Shown: positions 16,024 to 41,134 of the stretch, one piece after another
How the letters are laid out: the number at the start of each line of letters is the position of its first letter
Position numbering within the stretch: the stretch's first letter is position 1
Origin: Candidatus Falkowbacteria bacterium RIFOXYA2_FULL_47_19
GTDB taxonomy: Bacteria > Patescibacteriota > Patescibacteriia > Patescibacteriales > UBA12075
DNA: 64,000 nt
NCBI GenBank assembly: GCA_001780275.1
Contig: MFGB01000017.1
Span: forward strand, 59,841-123,840
Reading direction: 5' to 3'
The notes under the pieces: generated by a model
The model's database searches: none
The model's input: the letters and a program-made list of their open reading frames with translations, nothing else
What the model was told of the DNA's origin: nothing
Position numbers and translations under genes: made by a program

Positions 16024-18834
16024 ATGGGAATTCTGGATAAAATTTTCGGCGATGCCAACGCCAAGATCGTTAAGGACATGCAGCCGATCATCGATAAAAT
16101 CAACGCCCTGGAGCCTCAGTATAAGAAGATGAGCGCCGAGGAACTAAGGGGGGTAACGGGCGTTTTCAGACAAAAGCTCGGGGCCGGATCGGCGCGCGAT
16201 CTTGACGCTTTTCTGCCGGAAGCGTTCGCGGCCGTGCGTGAAGCGAGCCGGCGGACGCTCGGCCAGAGGCATTACGACGTTCAGCTCATAGGCGGGATCG
16301 TGCTCCATCGCGGGCAGATCGCCGAGATGAAGACCGGAGAAGGAAAAACCCTGGTCGCGACCCTGCCGCTATATTTAAACGCCCTTCCCGGCCGCGGCGC
16401 CCAGCTTATTACCGTAAACGATTATCTGTCGCGGGTCGGCGCCGGCTGGATGGCGCCGGTCTACCATGCCCTCGGCATGACTACCGGCGTGATCATCCAT
16501 GACGCGGCTTTCAGCTATGATCCCGGATATTCGGACGATTCCCAGTATGACGATAGGTTAAAGCATTTCCGGCCGGTCAAGCGGCGGGAGGCGTATGCGT
16601 GCGATATCGTTTACGGCACCAATAACGAGTTCGGCTTCGATTATTTGCGCGACAATATGGTCGCTAATCCCGGCCAGATGGTCCAGCGGGATCTTTATTA
16701 TGCGATCGTGGACGAGGTCGATTCGATATTGATCGATGAAGCCCGGACCCCGTTGATCATAAGCGCTCCGGCCGAAGAATCGACCGATAAATATTATAAG
16801 TTCTCCCAGCTGGTCGGCCGGCTAAAGGAAAACGAGGATTATAACGTGGACGAGAAAATGCGGGCCGCGACGCTTACCGAAGGCGGGATAGGAAGGATGG
16901 AAAAATGGCTAGGCGTGGACAATATTTATACCGCCGGAGGGATCCGCGAAGTGCACCACATCGAACAGGCCCTGAAGGCGCACACCCTTTTCAAGCGCGA
17001 CCGCGATTATGTGGTGAAGGATGGCGAGGTCATTATCGTGGACGAGTTTACCGGCCGCCTGATGCACGGACGGCGTTATTCCGAGGGATTGCATCAGGCG
17101 ATCGAAGCCAAAGAGGGCGCGAAGATCCAGCGTGAATCACAGACCCTGGCAACGATTACCTTTCAGAATTACTTCCGCATGTACAAGAAACTCTCCGGCA
17201 TGACCGGAACCGCCTCGACCGAAGCGGAGGAATTCTCCAAGATATACGAACTCGATACGGTTATCATACCTACGAACAAACCGAACGTGAGACTGGATCT
17301 AAACGACCTTATTTACCGCACCGGGGAGGGTAAGTTCAAAGCGGTCGTCGCGGAGATCAAGCGCCGGCACGAGACCGGGCAGCCGATATTAGTGGGCACC
17401 ATTTCCATAGAAAAGAACGAGATCCTGGCCGGTATGATGGAGCGGGAAGGGCTCCATCCGCAGGTTTTAAACGCTAAAAACCATGAACAGGAGGCGAAAT
17501 ATATCGCCCAGGCGGGCGCGTTTGGCGCGATCACGATCGCGACCAATATGGCCGGCCGCGGAGTCGATATAATCCTGGGCGGCGCCCAGGGGGACAAAGC
17601 GGCGCAGGAAAAGGTTAAAAGCCTGGGCGGGCTCCACGTCATCGGCACCGAACGGCACGAATCCCGGCGGATAGATAACCAGCTTCGGGGCCGGGCGGGG
17701 CGCCAGGGCGATCCGGGTTCGTCCCAGTTTTTCGTGTCGATGGAAGACGATCTTATGCGCATTTTCGGCGGCGACCGGATGAAGAGCATAATGACCACCC
17801 TGCGCGTGCCGGACGATATGCCGATCGAGAACCGTCTGATCTCGCGGTCGATAGAATCGGCGCAGCGCAAGGTCGAAGGTAACAACTTCGATATCCGTAA
17901 GCATCTGGTCGAATACGATGACGTGATAAACAAGCATCGGGAATCGATCTATCGCCGTCGCCGGGAAATATTGGGAATAGTCGATAAGAAAGCGGATGGT
18001 TCTCTTCCGCCGCCTGAATCCAAGGCCGACGACAAGCCAGCCGCGAATTTATCGGAGATAATCCTCGAAATGGTGGAAAACGAGATCGAACAGGTAGTAA
18101 GCTTCCATACGTCTGCCGAGCGCATTACGGATTGGAATCTTTCCGAAATAAACCAGGTGATTTCCACCATTTTTTCGGCCGGGGAGGTAGTCGGCGCTTT
18201 GGACGGATTTACAAAAGAAAATAACCATAAGCTGGACAAAGCCCAGGCGCGGACGGCTATCATCGAACGTTTGTCCGTTCTGGCGCGCCATTCATACGGA
18301 AAGATCGAAGCTAAGGCCCGGGAAAAAGGGATCGACTGGGCTGAGATCGAAAAAGCGGTCCTTATCCGTTCGATCGATACGCTTTGGATCGAGCATCTGG
18401 AGGCCATGGCGAGCATGCGGCAGGGGATAGGCTTAAGGGGTTATGGCCAGCGCGATCCTCTTATCGAATACAAGCGGGAGGCTTACGGCCTGTATAACGA
18501 ACTCAATAACCTTATCGCCAAGGAAGTGGTCTATTCGATTTTTAAGATAGGAGCGCTGCAGATCGAAGAGCGCGAATTCACGGCTCCGAGCCTTTTGGAG
18601 CGGGCGCGGCGGTTTACCGCTCCGGCTAAAACCATGGATGCCGGTACGGCTTCTTTCGCCGGTTATAAAACCGCCGGCAGCGCCTCCTCCTCCGGCGCTC
18701 CGGCCGCGCCCCAGGCCGGTTCCGGCGATCTTATCAAACAGAAGACCAAGGACGCGGAAGGCAACAAGGTCGGCCGCAACGATCCCTGTCCCTGCGGGAG
18801 CGGGAAAAAATACAAAAAGTGCCATGGAGTATGA
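16024..18834 (+). CDS. secA: Preprotein translocase ATPase SecA
   Basis: Full-length SecA ([57 protein letters not shown]) with a C-terminal zinc motif [14 protein letters not shown]. Confidence 0.97.
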
Positions 18835-19475
18835 CACTCCATGTCATGGGGAGTAGCGATATGGCCATAGCCGGAGAGGAACAATTATTGGAAATTTTGG
18901 ATAGCAATAAAAGCGTGAGAACTATCCTGGAGAAAGCGCGGGAAATGGACATGCCGAATTGGTATCTCGGCGCCGGCGGTATCGTGCAGACCGTCTGGAA
19001 CCTAAAGCACGGCTTCGATCCGGAAAACGGCATTAAGGATTACGATCTGGTCTACTATGACGCGGGCGATATTTCCTATGAGGCGGAGGATAGGTTCATA
19101 CTAAGAGGCGAAAAATTTTTTAAAGACATACCCGTGCCCGTGGAAATCAGAAACCAGGCCCGCGTGCATCTGTGGTACGAAAAACATTTCGGGAAAAAGA
19201 TCGGCCAATATGGATCCGCGGAAGAGGCTATGGGTACATGGCCGACAACGGCGACGGCGGTCGGGGTCAGAAGAGAGAACGGACGATTCCGGGTATGCGC
19301 GCCGCTTGGCTTAGATGATCTCCTCGGCATGATCGTAAGGGCGAACAAAGCGCTGATCACCGAAAAGATCTATCGGGATAAGGCCGACAGGTGGATAAAA
19401 ATCTGGCCGAATCTGAAAATAATCCCGTGGAGCCAAGAACAAGATCGGAAAATGCCGGGGATTGATCCAATATAA
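18831..19475 (+). CDS. Nucleotidyltransferase family protein (PF06042-like)
   Basis: [15 protein letters not shown] motif. The ATG at 18831 overlaps the secA stop (ATGA). Alternative starts are 18846 and 18861. Confidence 0.7.
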
Positions 19476-19477
19476 AT

Positions 19478-19939
19478 ATGGCCATTGAATATTATAATAA
19501 TTTACCGAAAAAGCGGATTGGAGCGGGGGTTATAATCTTAAACGGAAAAGAGGAGGTTCTTATCGTAAAACCTGGTTACAAAGACCATTGGTCGATAGTG
19601 GGCGGAGTGGTTGATGAAAATGAATCTCCGTTGAAAGCAGCCAGGAGGGAGACGAAGGAAGAAATAGGGATCGAGCTTAAAGACGCGAGATTTTTATGCG
19701 TCGATCACGTTTTGGATAACGGAAAAGGGGAGAGTTTGCAATTTATATTCTACGGCGGGAAACTGGACGAAGAAGAAATAAAGAAAATAAAGATCGACGG
19801 GAAAGAGATCGTCGAATATAAGTTCGTGAAAACAGACGATGCTTTGCGCCTGTTAAGCGAAAATTCAAGGATCAGGCTGTCGAAATGTTTTAAAGCTTTA
19901 AAGAATGATACGGCAATTTATTCAGAGGGGGATAAATGA
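19478..19939 (+). CDS. NUDIX hydrolase
   Basis: Nudix box GGVVDENESPLKAARRETKEEIGIE. Confidence 0.85.
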   Translation: MAIEYYNNLPKKRIGAGVIILNGKEEVLIVKPGYKDHWSIVGGVVDENESPLKAARRETKEEIGIELKDARFLCVDHVLDNGKGESLQFIFYGGKLDEEEIKKIKIDGKEIVEYKFVKTDDALRLLSENSRIRLSKCFKALKNDTAIYSEGDK

Positions 19940-32531: not shown

Positions 32532-34370
32532 TTAATATTCTTTAAAGATGTCGCTTAACTTCTGTTTGCCGAGAATGTGCAGTTCGAAGATAGCGCGGGT
32601 CATGGCCACATATAAGAGATCCCTCTTTACCCGTTTTTTTTCCGCGATAAAATCAGCCGGCATATTGGCGTAGGCCGGCAGCGACAGCCAGCCGTCGTTT
32701 GCCCCGACCAGGCAGACAATATCGAATTCCACGCCCTGGGCCTCGTTCATGGTCAGAATGTGCACGTTGGCGTTATTATGGAAAGATTTTTTAAATTTTT
32801 CCAGATAGTCTTTTTCGGCGGCTATAATACCGATGATATTTTTTTCCTTGGATTTTTCCAGGAGTTTTTTGATATATTCTATCTCTTCCGCCGGTCCGGG
32901 AAAAACGGCTTCTTTGACATCGGCGCCGCTCTTGGCCGAGTCGGGAATATTTATATCGTAACCGAGGTCTTTAATGTATTTAAGTATGCTCCCGGTATTG
33001 CGATAGACTTTATCCAGCCGGATATGCCGGTCGGGTTTTATTTCTTCCCCGATCTCTTCCCAGGTTTTTACGGTAAAAAGATTGATCTGCTGGCCCAGGT
33101 CGCCGATGTACAATAACGAACGAAGTTTATCGATGCAGCCGCGGATGATGGCTAATTGGGAAGGCAGATAGTTTTGGAATTCATCGATGATGATCAAAGA
33201 GTATTCGATCGGTTTTTTTCTGGTTTTCCTGGTTAAAAGATAATTTTTGTCAGTTACGTAATATTCTTCTTCCATGGTAAGCCCGCCGTACGCTCTTAGG
33301 CGCGATTTAAGGAGCAGGGTAAGGTCGAAACGATCCAGCAATTTCCGGTTTTTTTGTTTTTTGAATAAATTATACATGGCCGGAGACAGGCCGGTCCGAT
33401 AGATCTTTTCCAGCCAGGCCAGGGAGAAGCGGGCAGGGGGAGGGATATCCTCTTGCGCGAGCAGGCGGTTTTTTTCGTATTCGTACGCGTCTTTCTCCGC
33501 TTCCGTGCCACCGAATCGGTTCGTATAAGCGAGTTCGTCATTTAGCCCTAAAATTTTCGCTGCCCACTCGAAGATGGTGGTTATGCTGACGTCTTCTATG
33601 CCCAGTTCCGGAAGAAGGTGGGAGAAATAGTCTTTCGTCCCCGCGTCCTGAACGAAAACGATCGCCCGGCGGCCGCTGTAACGCTCGGCGGTTTCCGGAG
33701 ACTGCGCCAGGTAAGCCGCCCGATGAAGAGCGAGCGTGGTCTTGCCGGACCCGGCCGGGCCGGAAATGACGAAGGATCCGGCGCAGTCGGCGCGGATAAC
33801 TTCGTCCTGCGCCCTTTCCATGCGTTCGATTATTTCCGGCAGGGCAAAGCCGGTTTTGCGCGTCGAAAAGTATTCCTGATAAACCAGGGTTCGCGGCCGG
33901 CCGGTCTCTTCGGATGTCAGATAAACGATCTTGCCGTCGATGATCATGAATTGGTCTTTACGAAGCATGAGCCCATGTTTGATTTCCCCGTCCCGCCGCA
34001 CATAAGAAAACCGGCCGCAGTCCTCGAAGCGGATGGACGCTATGGGCGCTACCCAGGAATAGACGGACTCTTCGGTATAGGGAAACTTGGCAAAATAGAG
34101 CGTCTTCTCTTCGGGTTCGCCATCGAAGCGTACGTCGCATCTGACGAAATACGGCGAAGGATATAATTTTTTGAGCTCATCCAGCCTTTTGGCGTTGTAA
34201 TACATAAGCTCAACATGGACCATCCGGTCGGTGCCCCGGAGGCGTTTAAGCTCCGCGAGGTTTCTTTTGTCTTTATTCTCAAGTTCGGCCGATAAGATAC
34301 CGATCTTATTCCTGATCACGGATAAACGCTCTTTGGCGCGGCTATGGATTTTGCTTTTTTCTTCAGTCAT
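32532..34370 (-). CDS. helD: HelD-like UvrD/Rep superfamily-1 helicase (RNA polymerase recycling ATPase-like)
   Basis: Walker A ISGPAGSGKTTLALHRAAYL, motif II IIIDEFQNY, and C-terminal LYVAMTRAIFELHILG. The N-terminal coiled coil plus PYFVRCDVRF…YSWVAPIASIRFED is typical of HelD. Confidence 0.8.
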   Translation of the reverse strand: MTEEKSKIHSRAKERLSVIRNKIGILSAELENKDKRNLAELKRLRGTDRMVHVELMYYNAKRLDELKKLYPSPYFVRCDVRFDGEPEEKTLYFAKFPYTEESVYSWVAPIASIRFEDCGRFSYVRRDGEIKHGLMLRKDQFMIIDGKIVYLTSEETGRPRTLVYQEYFSTRKTGFALPEIIERMERAQDEVIRADCAGSFVISGPAGSGKTTLALHRAAYLAQSPETAERYSGRRAIVFVQDAGTKDYFSHLLPELGIEDVSITTIFEWAAKILGLNDELAYTNRFGGTEAEKDAYEYEKNRLLAQEDIPPPARFSLAWLEKIYRTGLSPAMYNLFKKQKNRKLLDRFDLTLLLKSRLRAYGGLTMEEEYYVTDKNYLLTRKTRKKPIEYSLIIIDEFQNYLPSQLAIIRGCIDKLRSLLYIGDLGQQINLFTVKTWEEIGEEIKPDRHIRLDKVYRNTGSILKYIKDLGYDINIPDSAKSGADVKEAVFPGPAEEIEYIKKLLEKSKEKNIIGIIAAEKDYLEKFKKSFHNNANVHILTMNEAQGVEFDIVCLVGANDGWLSLPAYANMPADFIAEKKRVKRDLLYVAMTRAIFELHILGKQKLSDIFKEY

Positions 34371-34554: not shown

Positions 34555-34581
34555 TTAGCACTCTCTTGACATGAGTGCTAA
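34555..34581 (+). promoter_or_regulatory. CIRCE operator (HrcA binding site) overlapping the hrcA promoter
   Basis: TTAGCACTC-N9-GAGTGCTAA is a perfect match to the CIRCE consensus. The N9 contains the -35 TTGACA. Confidence 0.95.
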
Positions 34582-34593
34582 GTATTGTATAAT
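34566..34593 (+). promoter_or_regulatory. Promoter of the hrcA-grpE operon
   Basis: TTGACA, 16 nt, TATAAT, embedded in CIRCE. Confidence 0.8.
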
Positions 34594-34620
34594 ATTGATA
34601 TATCCTAGGTGGATAAAAAT

Positions 34621-35304
34621 ATGGATAAAAGAAAGGAACTAATATTAAACACCATTATCCAGGAACATATAAAGACCGGCACGCCGGTTGGTTCAGGCAT
34701 TATCGCGGAAAAATATAAACTGGGAATTTCCCCGGCTACGATCAGGAATGAAATGGCCTCCCTGGAAGAAGACGGCTTTATAACGCAGCCGCACACTTCC
34801 GCCGGCCGGATTCCCACGGAAAAAGCTTATCGTTTATTTTTGGATAGCTTGCGGCCGGATAACGCGGAATTTAAAAACGACTTCCTGAATTTGAAGAATA
34901 TTTTAAAGGCGAAAGACGAGGTAAGCTTCAAGGAGGCCGCCAAGGTCATGGCTTTGGTTTCCGGCAATGCGGTTTTTTGGGCTTTTCACCGGCATAATTT
35001 ATATTATACGGGCATTTCCAACCTGTTCCAGCAGCCGGAGTTCAGGGAATTGGACGTAATTTATGATATTTCCGCGGTCATTGACCGGATAGATGAGATC
35101 GTTGACGAGATGTATGAGGGCACAAAGCCGGGCTTAAGCACGCTTATAGGCACCAAAAACCCCTTTGGAGATCTGTGCAGTACGGTACTGGCGAAATATA
35201 AATGGGGCGAACGGACCGGCCTGTTCGGTGTTATCGGACCGATGCGGATGGATTACAAGAAGAATATCGCTTTAGTTAAATATGTGTTTGATGAGATCGG
35301 ATAA
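34621..35304 (+). CDS. hrcA: Heat-inducible transcription repressor HrcA (short form, about 227 aa)
   Basis: wHTH N-terminus LNTIIQEHIKTGTPVGSGIIAEKYKLGISPATIRNEMASLEEDGFITQPHTSAGRIPTEKAY. A perfect CIRCE lies upstream. SD AGGTGG precedes the ATG at 34621. Confidence 0.88.
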   Translation: MDKRKELILNTIIQEHIKTGTPVGSGIIAEKYKLGISPATIRNEMASLEEDGFITQPHTSAGRIPTEKAYRLFLDSLRPDNAEFKNDFLNLKNILKAKDEVSFKEAAKVMALVSGNAVFWAFHRHNLYYTGISNLFQQPEFRELDVIYDISAVIDRIDEIVDEMYEGTKPGLSTLIGTKNPFGDLCSTVLAKYKWGERTGLFGVIGPMRMDYKKNIALVKYVFDEIG

Positions 35305-35358
35305 TAGCATTTTAAATGAACGGCCCTTGGCCGATAATTAACGAATTTCAATTTTTCT

Positions 35359-36234
35359 ATGGATAATGCGCAAAATGAAATTAAAAAATATCCCAAAGCC
35401 ATTACCGGCGCGTTCATATTCAATGACAAAGGCGAGTTATTTTTGATGAAATCGCCCAAGTGGCAGGATAAATATGTCTGCCCCGGCGGTACGGTCGAGT
35501 ATAATGAAAAAATAGAAGATAATCTGAGGCGCGAAGTAAGGGAAGAAACCAACATGGAGATCGCGGATATCGGATTTTTAGGAATTTCCGAGGGCGTCAA
35601 TTTAGGCGATAAATATTCCAAGGCCGCCAAACATCTGATATTTTTTAATTATCAGGCGGTCGTCAGCGGACGCCCGGATATTAAACTGAACGACGAAGCG
35701 GTCAAATACCGGTGGTTGAAACCGGCCGAGTGGCTGAAGAAAGATCTGGGCGAATTTACCAAAGAGGTAATAGAAAAATATTTATCAGAAGACCGTGATT
35801 ACGAAGGCAGGTATAAGCGAGCCCTGGCTGATTACCAGAATCTTCTCAAACAGACGGCCAAAGAGCGGGAAGAATTCATCAAATACGCGAACGAACAGGT
35901 CATTTATGATATTATCCCGGTTTACGATAATCTGCGGACATCAATGGAGCATGTCGACGAGGCTACGGCCAAGAACGGCTGGGTCGAAGGCATAAAATAC
36001 GTGATCAGGCAATTCAAGGATATTTTAGGGAAGATGGGCGTGGAGGAAATAGAAGCCACCGGTAAAAAATTCGATTATCATACCATGGAGGCGCTGGAGG
36101 GCAAGGGAGAGAAGGTCGTAAAAACGGTCAAGCCGGGGTATAAGCTGCACGGGAAGGTGATCATACCGGCTAAGGTCGTTTTGGAAAAAGGCGGGGATAG
36201 TGCTACTGGTGACGTAGCGGATAAAAAACAATAA
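35359..36234 (+). CDS. grpE: Fusion protein: N-terminal NUDIX hydrolase domain plus C-terminal GrpE nucleotide exchange factor
   Basis: Nudix box GGTVEYNEKIEDNLRREVREETNMEI (aa about 40-70). GrpE region YKRALADYQNLLKQTAKEREEFIKYANEQVIYDIIPVYDNLRTS…KFDYHTMEALE…GYKLHGKVIIPAKV. It is a single uninterrupted 291-aa frame. Confidence 0.85.
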   Translation: MDNAQNEIKKYPKAITGAFIFNDKGELFLMKSPKWQDKYVCPGGTVEYNEKIEDNLRREVREETNMEIADIGFLGISEGVNLGDKYSKAAKHLIFFNYQAVVSGRPDIKLNDEAVKYRWLKPAEWLKKDLGEFTKEVIEKYLSEDRDYEGRYKRALADYQNLLKQTAKEREEFIKYANEQVIYDIIPVYDNLRTSMEHVDEATAKNGWVEGIKYVIRQFKDILGKMGVEEIEATGKKFDYHTMEALEGKGEKVVKTVKPGYKLHGKVIIPAKVVLEKGGDSATGDVADKKQ

Positions 36235-36341
36235 GATACAAGAAACAAGACACAAGGATACAAACAAATTTCAAATTCCAAAATACCAAACAGTTTGATT
36301 ATCGAATATTGGAAATTGTTTCTTGTATTCTTGTGTCTTGG
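36233..36341. repeat. Family A word-repeat hairpin with the conserved core
   Basis: Arm AAGATACAAGAAACAAGACACAAGGATACAAAC. Core AAATTTCAAATTCCAAAATACCAAACAGTTTGAT. Arm GTTTCTTGTATTCTTGTGTCTTGG. Confidence 0.85.
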
Positions 36342-36414
36342 TAAAATATAATTAACGATCCATTGGTCGGTCTATGGCGCGTAAGATGCCATTTCCGGCT
36401 AAGGGGGAAAAAAT

Positions 36415-36849
36415 ATGGCTTTGATCAAATGGAGCCCATTCCTCGATGTCGAACCTTTCGAGGAGATGGAAAAAATGTTTTCCGACTGGCCAGGCATGCG
36501 CGGCAATAAATCCGGTTTTGTGCCGGCCGTCGATATGTACGAAGACAAGGACAATGTCGTCGTCGAAACCCAGCTCGCGGGCATTGATCCGGAAAAAGTC
36601 GATATTTCTATCGAGAACGACGTGCTTTCGATCAAGGGCGAATCGGAAAAGAAAAGCGAGGTGGAAGACAAGAATTATTACCGCAAGGAGATCCGGCGCG
36701 GCAGTTTTTATCGGAGCGTTCCGCTTCCGACCCATGTTTTGGGAGACAGGGCCGAAGCGACGACCAATGACGGCGTTCTGAAGATCACTATTCCGAAGGC
36801 GCCCGAAGCGAAGCCGCGGACGATTAAGATAAAAACCACAAAGAAATAA
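36415..36849 (+). CDS. Hsp20/alpha-crystallin family small heat-shock protein
   Basis: PAVDMYEDKDNVVVETQLAGIDPEKVDISIENDVLSIKGE…RSVPLP…GVLKITIPK is the alpha-crystallin domain. Confidence 0.92.
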   Translation: MALIKWSPFLDVEPFEEMEKMFSDWPGMRGNKSGFVPAVDMYEDKDNVVVETQLAGIDPEKVDISIENDVLSIKGESEKKSEVEDKNYYRKEIRRGSFYRSVPLPTHVLGDRAEATTNDGVLKITIPKAPEAKPRTIKIKTTKK

Positions 36850-36907
36850 ATATCAATAGGGGGACTTTCCGCCCGAGGCGGATAAGTTATCCCCGGCTTA
36901 GCACATG

Positions 36908-37121
36908 TTTAGGCGTTAGGCCGTTAGGCGGTAGGCTTTAGGAAGTTTTAATAAGCGTGTGGTGGGGCGGGGATGTTCAAATTACGAATTACGAATGTCG
37001 AATTACGAATTAAACCGTAAAATAATTTTTTATAACAAACAATTATCAAACCAAAAATATCGCATCACGTCGTTACTAATTGCCGGGCAGGCGTTATGGG
37101 TTACGCGTTATGCGTTATGCG
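36908..37121. repeat. Three unpaired tandem-word blocks upstream of dnaK
   Basis: TTAGGCGTTAGGCCGTTAGGCGGTAGGCTTTAGG (36908-42). AATTACGAATTACGAATGTCGAATTACGAATT (36980-37011). GCGTTATGGGTTACGCGTTATGCGTTATGCG (37091-37121). Confidence 0.8.
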
Positions 37122-37129
37122 ACAAAGAT

Positions 37130-39046
37130 ATGGGAAAAATATTAGGTATCGATCTGGGTACGACCAATAGCGCCATGGCGATCATGGAAGGCGGCCAGCC
37201 CAAGATCCTGGAGAATGCCGAAGGCAACCGGACCACGCCTTCGATCGTGGCGATCTCTAAAAGCGGCGAGCGCTTAGTCGGCCAGACCGCCAAGCGCCAG
37301 GCCGTGACCAATCCGGAAAATACCGTTTACGCGGTCAAGCGCCTGATCGGCCGCCGGTTTACCGACGACGAAGTGCAACGGGACATAAAGATCTCGCCTT
37401 ATAAGATCGTCCAGGCCGGAGAAGGCGTTAAGGTCAAGATGAACGGTCAGGATTATACTCCGCAGGAGATATCGGCCATGATCCTCTCGAAGCTCAAAGC
37501 GGACGCCGAAGCCAAACTCGGGGAAAAGATCACTGAAGCGATCATTACCGTGCCGGCTTATTTCGACGATTCGCAGCGGCAGGCCACCAAAGACGCCGGC
37601 AAGATCGCCGGACTCGAGGTCAAGCGCATAATCAACGAGCCGACGGCAGCGGCCCTGGCTTACGGTTTTGAAAAGAAAAAGGGCCAGCAGATCGCGGTTT
37701 ACGACTTAGGCGGCGGCACCTTCGATATTTCGATCCTGGACGTTTCCAAGGATACGGTCGAGGTAAAATCGACCAACGGCGACACGCATTTGGGCGGCGA
37801 GGATTTCGATCAAGTGCTCATAAACTGGATCATCGATGAATTCAAAAAAGACCAGGGTATAGACCTGTCTAAAGATACTTTGGCGCTCCAGCGCATCAAG
37901 GAGGCGGCGGAAAAGGCGAAGATCGAATTATCCACCACGAACGAAAGCGAAATCAACCAGCCTTTCATAACGACCGACGCGAACGGACCGAAGCATCTGG
38001 TCATGAAGCTGACCCGGGCCAAGCTCGAAGAGCTGGTGGGCGATCTTGTGGAAAAGACCCTGAAACCCTGCGAGGACGCGCTTCGGGACGCCAAACTCGA
38101 AAAGAAGGATATTGAAGAGGTGATCATGGTCGGCGGGATGACCCGCATGCCCCTGGTCCAGAAAAGAGTCAGGGAGTTTTTCGGCAAAGAACCGAATTTA
38201 AGCGTCAATCCGGACGAAGTCGTAGCCGTCGGCGCGGCCGTCCAGGCCGGCGTTCTCCAGGGCGACGTCAAGGATGTCCTCCTATTAGACGTTACTCCCT
38301 TGACCCTCGGCATAGAAACCTTGGGCGGAGTGGCGACGCCTTTGATCGAACGCAATACCACCATCCCGACCTCGAAATCGCAGATATTTTCGACCGCGGC
38401 CGACAGCCAACCGTCGGTCGAGATCCACGTGCTCCAGGGCGAGCGGCCGATGGCGGCGGACAACAAGACCTTAGGACGCTTTATATTGGATGGGCTTCCG
38501 CCCGCGCCGCGGGGAATACCGCAGATCGAGGTTACTTTCGATATCGACGCTAACGGCATTTTAAACGTCAAGGCTCAGGACAAGGCCTCAGGGAAAGAGC
38601 AGAAGATCACTATCACTTCTTCGTCGGGACTCTCGAAAGAAGAGGTCGAGAAAATGAAGAAAGAGGCCGAAGCGCACGCCGAAGATGATAAAAAGAAAAA
38701 GGAAAAGGTGGAAATAAAGAATCAAGCCGAAACGATCGTTTTCACTACCGAAAAATTGATCAAAGAATCCGGCGAGAAGATGAAGCCGGAAGACAAGAAA
38801 GAATTAGAAACGAAAATTGAAGAGCTTAAAAAAGTTAAAGACACGGATAATACCGATGAGATCAAGAAAAAAATGGAAGAAATGAACCAGGTAGCCCAGA
38901 GGATCGGCACGGCCATGTACCAGGCGGCTCAGGCGGCCGGCGCGCAGGCCGGAGCGGACGGCGCCAAGGCCGGAGAACAGAAAACTGACGATAAAAACGG
39001 CAAGAAAGACGAGCCGATCGAAGGGGAATTCGAGGAAAAGAAATAA
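37130..39046 (+). CDS. dnaK: Molecular chaperone DnaK (Hsp70)
   Basis: [17 protein letters not shown] start, [12 protein letters not shown] and other motifs. The track start at 36959 extends through upstream word-repeats. Confidence 0.98.
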
Positions 39047-39170: not shown

Positions 39171-39332
39171 CCGCACCTCGCTTTCGCCCCCCCACCCAAG
39201 GCAGGCAGACTGGGATGACAAAAAAGAAAAAGAGCGGTAAAATTAAATTTTAGAAGAACCATAAAACATTAAACGCTTGAATCCGGTTCCTCTATCGCGC
39301 GAGAGCGGGTGAAGAGGGTCAGGGTGAGGGCA

Positions 39333-39635
39333 ATGTCGAATATGTCACAAGTAAACCAACCCAAGAAAACCGAAATCAAAATCGCGGATAATATCCCGGG
39401 AGCGGAATACGCGAACGCGATGCAGGTCAACCATAACCGGGACGAGTTCCAGCTGATGTTTTTAAATATCCTCGGCCCCTCCGGCCGCGTTACCGGCAAA
39501 ATCATCACCGGACCAGGCCATCTCAAGCGCATTGTGGCGGCTCTCCAGGATAATTTAAAGAAATACGAAGAGCGCTTCGGCGTGATCAAGGAAGCTGAAG
39601 GTCCGGAGGAGAAGGAGATCGGGTTTAAGGGCTAA
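39333..39635 (+). CDS. DUF3467 domain-containing protein
   Basis: GAEYANAMQVNHNRDEFQLMFLNI…ITGPGHLKRIVAALQDNLKKYEERFG matches the DUF3467 pattern. An alternative ATG is at 39342. The track GTG at 39309 lies in GC-rich repeat DNA. Confidence 0.8.
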   Translation: MSNMSQVNQPKKTEIKIADNIPGAEYANAMQVNHNRDEFQLMFLNILGPSGRVTGKIITGPGHLKRIVAALQDNLKKYEERFGVIKEAEGPEEKEIGFKG

Positions 39636-39676: not shown

Positions 39677-40030
39677 ATGAATAAGGAGGATTTAAAAAAT
39701 AGATTTAAAAAGTTTGCCTTGCGCGTAATTAAATTAACGCGTGCTTTGCCAAGTACTTATGAGTCAAAGGTAATGGGCGGGCAATTATTAAGATGCGGAA
39801 CTTCTTCAGCGGCTAATTATAGAGCGGCCTGCAGGGGTAAATCAAGACCTGATTTTATCTCTAAGTTAGGGATTGTTGAAGAAGAATTGGATGAAAGCAT
39901 GTTTTGGATGGAAATAATTATCGAGTCGGAATTAATAGCCAGACATTTAATCAAAGATTTATATCAAGAAACCGATGAATTATTATCAATAATCATCAAG
40001 TCCAAAATTACTGCCAGAAATAATAAATAA
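39677..40030 (+). CDS. Four-helix-bundle protein (23S rRNA intervening-sequence protein family, PF05635/TIGR02436-like)
   Basis: FALRVIKLTRALP…GGQLLRCGTSSAANYRAACRGKSRPDFISKLGIVEEELDESMFWMEII is the family signature. It is flanked by inverted arms. Confidence 0.88.
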   Translation: MNKEDLKNRFKKFALRVIKLTRALPSTYESKVMGGQLLRCGTSSAANYRAACRGKSRPDFISKLGIVEEELDESMFWMEIIIESELIARHLIKDLYQETDELLSIIIKSKITARNNK

Positions 40031-40066: not shown

Positions 40067-41134
40067 ATGGGTAAAGATTACTATAAAATTTTAGGCGTAG
40101 ACAAGAGCGCCGGCGCGGACGATATAAAGAAGGCATTCCGCAAAAAAGCGCACGAGTTCCATCCGGATAAAGCCGGCGGGGACGAGGCTAAATTCAAGGA
40201 GGCTAACGAGGCTTATCAGGTGCTTTCCGATCCTAAAAAACGGGCCCAGTACGATCAGTACGGTTCGACGTTCGAGCACGCCCAAAGTCGGGGCGGTTTT
40301 TCCGGTTTCGGCGATTTTAGCAACGGATTCAACGTAGACGCGGAAGATCTGGGCGATATTTTCGGGGGCATCGGCGACATCTTCGGTTTCGGAGGCGGCC
40401 GGCAAGGCCGGCAGAGGGGCGGAAACGATATCCAGACGGTTTTAACGATCGATTTTGCCGAAGCCGTAACCGGGGCGGACAAAGAAATAAGTTTGCGTAA
40501 AAAGGTCAAATGCTCCCATTGCCACGGCAACGCGGCCGAACCCGGCACCAAGATCGAAACCTGCAAGGTCTGCAGCGGTTCGGGCCGGGTAACAAGGGTC
40601 CAGCGGACAATTTTGGGCAATATGCAGGTACAGACGGCCTGTACGGCCTGCGGCGGCGAGGGTAAAACCTACGCGCAGAAATGCCGGCGGTGTTCCGGCA
40701 CCGGTGTTGTTTTCGAAACGGTGAATTTAAGGGTCAGGATTCCGGCCGGGATCGATGATGGCGAGAGCATCCGCCTGTCCGGCGAGGGCGAAGCCGGAGA
40801 AAAAGGGGCCGGGGCCGGCGACTTGTATTTGCGCATCAGAGTGCGTCCGGATAAGCGTTTCGAGCGCGCGGACAGCGATATAAGATCGGGTGCGACCGTA
40901 AGCTTCACGCAGGCGGCTTTAGGGGATAAGATCGACGTGGAAACGGTCGAGGGACCGGTCGAACTTAAAATTCCGGCCGGCACCCAATCCGGTACGGTTT
41001 TTAAATTGCGCGGCAAAGGCATGACCCGTTTGCGCGGCTCCGGCAAGGGCGACCATTACGTGGAAGTGACAGTGGATATTCCGAAGAGCCTTACGAAAAA
41101 GCAGAAAGAGCTGTTAAAAGAGATGGGATTGTAA
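40067..41134 (+). CDS. dnaJ: Molecular chaperone DnaJ (type I)
   Basis: J domain with HPD ([12 protein letters not shown]), a G/F region, and four CxxCxGxG zinc motifs. Confidence 0.96.

Follow-up and report, generated by a model that had tools for sequence, protein, structure and literature searches.

What is a Nudix hydrolase doing at the front of GrpE, the nucleotide exchange factor of DnaK? The question is raised by a 64,000-nucleotide stretch of DNA (the window, to which positions refer unless another contig is named) from Candidatus Falkowbacteria bacterium RIFOXYA2_FULL_47_19, a member of the candidate phyla radiation (CPR), where the grpE gene of a heat-shock operon encodes an N-terminal Nudix domain and a C-terminal GrpE domain in one polypeptide (Table 1). 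The identical protein has already been deposited—OGF26128.1 / UniRef100_A0A1F5SHC7, from Candidatus Falkowbacteria bacterium RIFOXYB2_FULL_47_14—under the name "nucleotide exchange factor GrpE" only, with the Nudix half unlabelled. This Nudix-GrpE fusion is real, widespread, and conserved. As a first-pass annotation made from the nucleotide letters had claimed, both domains lie in a single uninterrupted open reading frame (ORF) of 291 codons plus a stop, and the stop codon between the domains against which that annotation had hedged its claim is absent. The profile searches that it had proposed place NUDIX (PF00293) on residues 16–140 (E 2.1e-18, 67 bits against a cut-off of 21.1) and GrpE (PF01025) on residues 134–275 (E 8e-33, 113.9 bits against 25.8), both above the curated Pfam cut-offs, with the GrpE alignment spanning positions 16–163 of the 165 in the model. 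The NCBIfam GrpE equivalogs all stay under their full-length cut-offs (best 99 against 194), as is expected of a divergent CPR sequence with a foreign N-terminus. Separate synthesis of GrpE alone is not to be expected, since inspection of the translation found no in-frame ATG, GTG, or TTG between residues ~121 and 195; an in-frame TTG at residue 120 (nt 35716) falls within the Nudix fold. An origin of the fusion by artefact or frameshift is ruled out by the uninterrupted frame together with 170 independent single Nudix-GrpE sequences.

The fold of each half has been predicted with AlphaFold2 in a model built on 115 homologues, with a mean predicted local distance difference test score (pLDDT) of 88.9. 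The first-pass annotation had divided the protein at about residue 150; its two domains stand, and the boundary is shifted by the model to a linker at residues 143–147. Beyond the linker, the GrpE core consists of the stalk and first bundle helix (residues 148–197), a second bundle helix (207–225), and a beta domain (228–275), predicted with pLDDT values of 80–95. In Foldseek comparisons with the PDB, the Nudix half reaches template modeling (TM) scores of 0.76–0.84 to solved targets, among them Salmonella NudI/YfaO (3OGA; TM(target) 0.81, E 3e-11); it also resembles the Rickettsia "ADP-ribose pyrophosphatase MutT" (4KYX), the diadenosine tetra- and hexaphosphate (Ap4A/Ap6A) hydrolases 3I7U from Aquifex and 1VC8 (Thermus Ndx1), and MutT1. 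The GrpE half resembles GrpEL1, and among the matches listed each solved chain covers one of the two domains only. With the MutT/NudI-type enzymes (3OGA, 4KYX, 3I7U, 1VC8) the fused Nudix domain shares the single-domain alpha/beta/alpha fold (TM 0.76–0.82) and all catalytic residues of the Nudix box; it differs from them in the last glycine of the box, which is an asparagine, and in being tethered covalently to a dimeric co-chaperone.

The C-terminal 130 residues align with the canonical GrpE proteins of E. coli (1DKG), Geobacillus kaustophilus (4ANI), and Thermus thermophilus (3A6M) over stalk, four-helix bundle, and beta domain, and in a PDB profile search the family profile retrieves the G. 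kaustophilus GrpE-DnaK complex (4ANI) with E 5e-29. E. coli GrpE residues G122, F86, and R183, which are conserved DnaK contacts, have their equivalents on the 1DKG alignment in G211 (invariant in the family), Y176, and K266 (lysine in at least 90% of the family). The N-terminus, in contrast, differs from that of canonical GrpE. The alignment with 1DKG starts at E. coli residue 56, corresponding to residue 145 of the fusion, and the shortened stalk helix begins at residue 148, the equivalent of E. coli residue 59; nothing in the fusion thus corresponds to the disordered tail or to ~19 residues of the E. coli stalk. In the place of the tail, which in canonical GrpE contacts the DnaK substrate-binding domain, and of this part of the stalk there is a folded domain of 130 residues, in support of the earlier proposal that the Nudix module replaces the regulatory N-terminus of GrpE. 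The disordered N-terminal tail varies among GrpE homologues and is not strictly defining (PMC12987570). From the last Nudix helix to the invariant RALADYQNL motif (E139–A155) the spacing is 15–17 residues in 101 of 115 family members, which argues for a tether that is short and constrained in length. In Pfam match, predicted fold, contact residues, and gene neighbourhood, the C-terminal half agrees with GrpE apart from the variable tail, and the N-terminal half has the sequence and fold features of the Nudix superfamily and fits no characterised subfamily.

The Nudix box that had been recognised in the N-terminal half is present and reads G-x5-E-x7-R-E-V-R-E-E-T-N-M, matching all catalytic positions of the consensus GX5EX7REUXEEXGU. 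Its single deviation, the replacement of the penultimate G by N, is also the majority state of the family (91 N and 18 G of 115). Conservation across 115 relatives, which are 47–87% identical to the fusion, is nearly complete at G44 (113/115), E50 (115/115), R58 (115/115), E59 (113/115), E62 (114/115), and E63 (115/115). The best non-GrpE relatives of the domain are fused to adenine phosphoribosyltransferase (APRT) and methylthioadenosine/purine nucleoside phosphorylase (MTAP), or to HAD phosphatases, the latter in Verrucomicrobia. On a contig of Ca. Falkowbacteria bin.303 (L010, 3–1853), a Nudix domain that is 41% identical to that of the window and has an intact box lies between APRT and MTAP in one frame, and APRT-Nudix-MTAP proteins form three clusters (P0390–P0392). 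By association, these fusions suggest a nucleoside polyphosphate, possibly an adenine nucleotide, as the substrate of the fused Nudix domain. The APRT-Nudix-MTAP arrangement is itself a rare elaboration of the APRT-MTAP fusion that is very common in Patescibacteria/DPANN, and some relatives add a PfkB kinase.

The survey of related genomes that the first-pass annotation had called for finds no fewer than 170 distinct Patescibacteria sequences with the single Nudix-GrpE architecture, encoded at the same place in the operon. Among 5.8 billion proteins searched, 472 matched at E ≤ 1e-5; both Pfam domains are present in 117 of the best 120 of these, and the organisms named among the best 120 are Falkowbacteria, Parcubacteria, or "Patescibacteria group". 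In a library of 1.84 billion representatives of 50%-identity clusters, the best 150 matches include 54 single-Nudix and 3 double-Nudix fusions. The counts of fusions are lower bounds rather than a census, and the matches listed from a scan of genome contigs are mostly to single domains. Among 162 fusions with near-complete domains, the pairwise identities of the two halves correlate (Mantel r = 0.60, reached by none of 500 permutations), which indicates that the halves are largely inherited as a unit. The ratio of nonsynonymous to synonymous substitution rates (dN/dS) against the closest relative, at 80% nucleotide identity, comes to 0.046 in each of the two halves, at a dS of 1.45, near saturation. 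In a neighbor-joining (NJ) tree of the GrpE domain, fused and unfused forms are interleaved; as the domain is short (134 columns) and the tree weakly resolved, gains and losses of the fusion are not countable.

The fusion gene belongs to an HrcA-controlled heat-shock operon under a controlling inverted repeat of chaperone expression (CIRCE), with the gene order hrcA, nudix-grpE, hsp20, dnaK, DUF3467, a low-GC gene of the 23S rRNA intervening-sequence protein family, and dnaJ. The position claimed earlier, after hrcA in a CIRCE-controlled cluster, was correct; the gene does not stand immediately before dnaK, as hsp20 intervenes. The operator matches the CIRCE pattern with 0 mismatches and is the sole match in the window at up to 3 mismatches, where 0.02 are expected by chance. 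With canonical grpE the gene has in common the operon partners hrcA, dnaK, and dnaJ under CIRCE, and the 64-kb window holds no further GrpE gene. Linkage of the fusion to dnaK, dnaJ, and hrcA is conserved on three contigs of relatives (L001, L086, L087), on all of which hsp20 keeps its position. The order hrcA, Nudix-GrpE, hsp20, one unassigned gene, dnaK, DUF3467, and dnaJ recurs on relatives' contigs of 1.27 Mb and 0.9 Mb, and the contig of the closest relative (L087) keeps part of the same gene order.

The favoured answer to the opening question, with a probability of roughly 55%, is that the protein is bifunctional: a working exchange factor whose N-terminal Nudix domain would serve both as a structural cap and as a stress-co-regulated nucleoside-polyphosphate hydrolase. 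We infer that the fusion serves as functional GrpE of the HrcA/CIRCE heat-shock operon from which it is made, and that a compact MutT/NudI-like Nudix domain has replaced the disordered tail and the upper part of the dimeric stalk. The C-terminal half, comprising a stalk of ~30 residues, the four-helix bundle, and the beta domain, would bind the DnaK nucleotide-binding domain and open it, so that ADP is released as in canonical GrpE. GrpE is a parallel dimer, and in known DnaK-GrpE complexes the N-terminal end of its stalk points to the DnaK linker and substrate-binding domain. Given a parallel dimer and a short linker, two Nudix domains would come to lie next to each other at the N-terminal tip of the stalk, which they may cap structurally. 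In this lineage the Nudix domain is predicted to be, in addition, an active Mg2+-dependent pyrophosphohydrolase, whose likeliest target would be an adenine nucleotide—damaged (d)ATP/ADP or a diadenosine polyphosphate (ApnA)—and which would be co-induced and co-localised with DnaK during stress.

Natural variants at the same slot bear on both of these proposed roles. At least one catalytic residue of the box has been lost in 13–15 of 55 fusion representatives (57 with a near-complete GrpE, minus two truncated), e.g., in boxes that read RILKAE, GHVKEQ, or KKKAEKE, and such dead-box fusions still align across the whole Nudix model. The box is kept in 25 of 26 stand-alone Nudix relatives. In a tandem protein of 451 amino acids (P0074), the GrpE-proximal Nudix box is decayed (RKMKDE) and the distal copy is intact, whereas of three other double forms of ~450 amino acids that were checked, two keep both boxes (P0154, P0182) and one has altered spacing in the distal box (P0194). 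The duplicated unit of P0074 takes in the first ~30 residues of the GrpE helix. On contig L002, a stand-alone Nudix ORF with an intact box (1062–1505) lies 14 nt upstream of a Nudix-GrpE ORF with a decayed box (1520–2368). Five further proteins with Pfam-negative N-termini of 115–140 amino acids nest among the fusions in the NJ tree, and these N-termini may be decayed Nudix domains; single-sequence hhalign comparisons with the Nudix profile gave weak support for P0255 (probability 50%, E 1.6e-4) and P0183 (E 7e-3) and uninformative results for the other three. A role as structural module would explain why the fold outlasts its catalytic activity and why decay strikes the proximal copy. If the fold is also an active pyrophosphohydrolase in most lineages, this would account for catalytic residues that hardly vary, for the low dN/dS, and for the active copy kept in tandem forms.

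Support for the hydrolase role also comes from an unrelated fold. In HD-GrpE proteins, found in three clusters only (P0211, P0269, P0270; 52–53% identical to one another), an HD domain stands in place of the Nudix domain, with the junction likewise just before the RALADYQNL motif. The module is of the YpgQ/YedJ/Lin1889 type and thus unrelated to Nudix, yet it is again an N-terminal metal-dependent nucleotide phosphohydrolase fold. HD-GrpE genes lie on two contigs in the same slot, hrcA-X-grpE-dnaK (L082, 6001–6918; L083, 807–1724), and the H..HD..D motif is intact in all three proteins. The nearest solved relatives of the module are Lin1889 (3B57, E 6e-10), B. subtilis YpgQ (5DQV, E 1.8e-9), and E. 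coli YedJ, and YpgQ is an Mn-dependent (d)NTP pyrophosphohydrolase (PMC8177086).

Several observations weigh against a bifunctional protein. Unfused GrpE proteins of 150–210 amino acids occupy the same hrcA-grpE-dnaK slot in other Patescibacteria, Falkowbacteria included; their GrpE part is 50–66% identical to that of the fusion, their N-termini are rich in lysine and look disordered, and no Nudix gene lies within 6 kb of these loci. Another domain, DUF1653 (PF07866), is fused to GrpE in at least five clusters (P0330, P0333, P0351, P0370, and P0140), and one cluster (P0117) combines DUF1653, Nudix, and GrpE. Its presence at the same place marks the GrpE N-terminus as a general fusion hot spot rather than a site reserved for hydrolases, and the N-terminus may simply tolerate fusions, DUF1653 having no known hydrolase role. 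The Nudix half misses the NCBIfam cut-offs for NudI (NF012016, 42.2 against 95 bits) and MutT (TIGR00586, 25.3 against 97.9); as no NCBIfam equivalog threshold is reached, it is assigned to no characterised subfamily, and NCBIfam equivalogs, PDB profile search, and Foldseek yield generic similarity to MutT, NudI, and ApnA hydrolases only in place of a substrate. Finally, the predicted TM score (pTM) of the fusion model is only 0.54, which leaves the relative orientation of the domains in the monomer model undefined, and the dimer and the DnaK complex lie outside the model.

A stronger form of the bifunctional reading couples the two halves mechanistically; the first-pass annotation had speculated on such a link between nucleotide exchange and the hydrolysis of nucleotides or alarmones. 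The tethered hydrolase would act on the nucleotide expelled by GrpE, or on inhibitory Ap4A or oxidised ATP/ADP occupying DnaK, so that exchange becomes directional or DnaK is protected at a poor ATP/ADP ratio. Direct coupling to the DnaK nucleotide cycle is plausible from the sequences, and it is possible, if on the unlikely side, that it accounts for the fusion. Two unrelated pyrophosphohydrolase folds, Nudix and the YpgQ-like HD, have been joined to the same operon gene at the same point, but HD fusions are rare and DUF1653, not known to be a hydrolase, is found there as well. While the catalytic residues are strongly constrained in the clade of the window, about a quarter of the fusion lineages have dead boxes, and in L002 the active copy resides on a separate ORF, so that covalent coupling of catalysis appears dispensable. 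The tether is short and length-constrained; in the known complexes 1DKG and 4ANI, however, tens of angstroms separate the N-terminus of the stalk from the nucleotide cleft. Outside GrpE, the closest relatives of this Nudix domain belong to adenine-salvage fusions, and its close structural matches include Ap4A and Ap6A hydrolases. Crosslinking of Ap4A to DnaK, GroEL, and ClpB has been reported, and apaH mutants are heat-sensitive (PMC10148737). In sum, a feedback of hydrolysis on the DnaK cycle has circumstantial backing from the independent HD fusion and from the fusions to salvage enzymes, whereas lineages with dead boxes, the split arrangement of L002, and the fusions to DUF1653 suggest that catalysis need not be covalently coupled. 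It is unlikely that the claim holds in its fullest form, in which ADP, Ap4A, or damaged adenine nucleotides would be broken down at DnaK-GrpE by the Nudix (or, in a few lineages, HD) module and exchange would become directional or resistant to poisoning, the same fold replacing the regulatory N-terminus of GrpE.

Quite unlikely is an arrangement in which GrpE and a house-cleaning Nudix enzyme were joined for co-expression or economy in a streamlined genome, with no cross-talk between them. Patescibacteria are rich in fusions, such as APRT-MTAP and its variants, unfused GrpE works in sister lineages, stand-alone Nudix relatives exist at 38–49% identity, and a second, stand-alone Nudix is encoded within the window itself. 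A passenger that has lost catalysis would, however, be expected to disappear from the genome. Many lineages nonetheless keep dead or decayed Nudix domains at full length, and in tandem forms the copy that has died is specifically the one next to GrpE. The linker is modelled with lower confidence, a point in favour of a passenger, but its length is constrained, the two domains co-evolve, and the fusion did not simply extend GrpE, since the native tail and part of the stalk were lost with it. That the Nudix fold is a pseudo-enzyme sensor, which would bind a nucleotide or alarmone and tune GrpE allosterically in place of the thermosensor stalk with no hydrolysis, is very improbable: the domain is retained in dead-box lineages and is located where the regulatory N-terminus was (PMC12915176 and PMC12987570 for the role of the tail), but E50, R58, E59, E62, and E63 are 98–100% conserved in the clade of the window at a dN/dS of 0.046, which would be unexpected if binding alone mattered.

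Two database entries resemble natural variants of the fusion and have been set aside. P0007 (99% identity), a seemingly unfused GrpE allele, is rejected as a chimeric assembly in which a fragment of the flagellar FlgE gene is joined at window position 35706; its source (L088, 1–538; contig ERZ4902888 NODE_20625) is a 98.9% identical strain at a coverage of 1.37, with the break inside the Nudix domain. This spurious "GrpE-only" protein serves as a cluster representative in the database. P0038, with Nudix, GrpE, and Hsp20 in one product, is a probable artefact, since the end of the GrpE beta domain is missing and the source is short-read.

The -35 hexamer and spacer of the operon promoter sit inside the CIRCE (Table 1). 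For hrcA, the ATG at 34621 behind AGGTGG (227 amino acids) is a more likely start than the GTG at 34609 (231 amino acids). HrcA of model bacteria has ~340 residues; homologues of 228–239 residues occur on L001, L082, and L084 and one of 288 on L086, and the Pfam HrcA match to the window protein covers model positions 110–215 only. The 54-nt spacer between hrcA and the fusion (35305–35358) holds a small GC hairpin at 35321–35333 and no recognisable Shine-Dalgarno sequence upstream of the fusion ATG (tttttctATG); hsp20 and probably hrcA have one. Downstream of the fusion, a second hairpin at 36359–36406 follows that listed in Table 1 and abuts the hsp20 Shine-Dalgarno AAGGGGG (36401–36407). Such structure may serve in RNA processing or stability, or act as an RNA thermometer, and the sequence of the hairpin region is not conserved in the closest relative, L087. 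The 280-nt spacer between hsp20 and dnaK (36850–37129) has no second CIRCE and contains short motifs in tandem, with TTAGGCGTTAGGC twice at 36909–36936, TCGAATTACGAATTA twice at 36977–37012, and three GCGTTATG-like copies at 37091–37118. The extra gene of the 23S rRNA intervening-sequence protein family before dnaJ (39677–40030, GC 0.34) is present in the window only, as compared with L001 and L086. Elsewhere in the window, the stand-alone Nudix gene (19478–19939) encodes 153 amino acids, with an intact box and 29% identity to the fused Nudix, and adjoins an NTP_transf_6 nucleotidyltransferase gene (18819–19475). A gene for a UvrD-like superfamily-1 helicase (32532–34370, minus strand) lies between an mreBCD-PBP2 cluster and hrcA; in L001, IMPDH is found at this position, which indicates local rearrangement. 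Rfam and tRNA scans of the window returned nothing.

Table 1. Positions in the window of the Nudix-GrpE fusion gene, its parts, and its operon surroundings
Feature	Position (nt)	Strand	Basis
CIRCE operator (HrcA site), perfect inverted repeat TTAGCACTC-N9-GAGTGCTAA	34555–34581	.	motif scan
sigma-70-type promoter TTGACA-16-TATAAT, 12/12 consensus	34566–34593	+	promoter scan
hrcA, short form	34609/34621–35304	+	PF01628 E 2.8e-16; PF03444 E 8.5e-5
nudix-grpE fusion gene, 291 amino acids	35359–36234	+	Pfam on ORF translation; exact match OGF26128.1 / UniRef100_A0A1F5SHC7
Nudix domain, alpha/beta/alpha sandwich, residues 13–142	35395–35784	+	AlphaFold2 pLDDT 94–98; Foldseek; Pfam
Nudix box, residues 44–66, with G44, E50, R58, E59, E62, E63 (catalytic, metal-binding)	35488–35556	+	family conservation
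inter-domain linker SEDRD, residues 143–147	35785–35799	+	non-helical, pLDDT ~70; family spacing
GrpE core, residues 148–275	35800–36183	+	Pfam, 1DKG alignment, profile search, AlphaFold2
disordered C-terminal tail, residues 276–291	36184–36231	+	pLDDT 43–53; missing from most homologues
imperfect hairpin, 95 nt, right after the fusion stop, no U-tract	36246–36340	+	inverted repeat I2, 18 nt, 94% complementary; z = -4.9
hsp20 (alpha-crystallin family), between fusion and dnaK	36415–36849	+	PF00011 E 1e-20
dnaK (Hsp70), presumed partner of the fusion protein, ATG start	37130–39046	+	PF00012 E 4e-264
DUF3467 gene, between dnaK and dnaJ	39309–39635	+	also in L001, L086
dnaJ	40067–41134	+	DnaJ, DnaJ_C, CXXCXGXG domain

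Literature searches found no published description of a Nudix-GrpE protein, and in a term search the text of a 2025 review of GrpE-like factors (PMC12987570) contained neither "Nudix" nor "fusion/fused". According to a preprint, Anabaena All4144 is likewise a GrpE with an extra folded domain; in contrast to the Nudix module, that domain is a DNA-binding helix-turn-helix and no enzyme, and the lineage is unrelated (bioRxiv 10.1101/2025.04.14.648684). GrpE has so far been regarded as an exchange factor with a purely structural role, the N-terminus of which adjusts substrate release and the response to temperature. Here, a large conserved clade is found to have swapped this N-terminus for what is predicted to be a nucleotide-acting enzyme domain, and hundreds of database entries named "GrpE" hide a second, probably catalytic, domain. 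The dead, duplicated, HD-substituted, and unfused forms constitute a ready comparative series on the purpose of the GrpE N-terminus, and the same series bears on a possible link of the Hsp70 nucleotide cycle to the quality control of nucleotides or the turnover of alarmones. As the proteins are small and look soluble, and the cognate DnaK and DnaJ are encoded nearby, these hypotheses are directly testable. If direct coupling holds true, some CPR bacteria would own an Hsp70 exchange factor that clears nucleotides with an enzyme domain of its own, in cells that are energy-poor and dependent on salvage.

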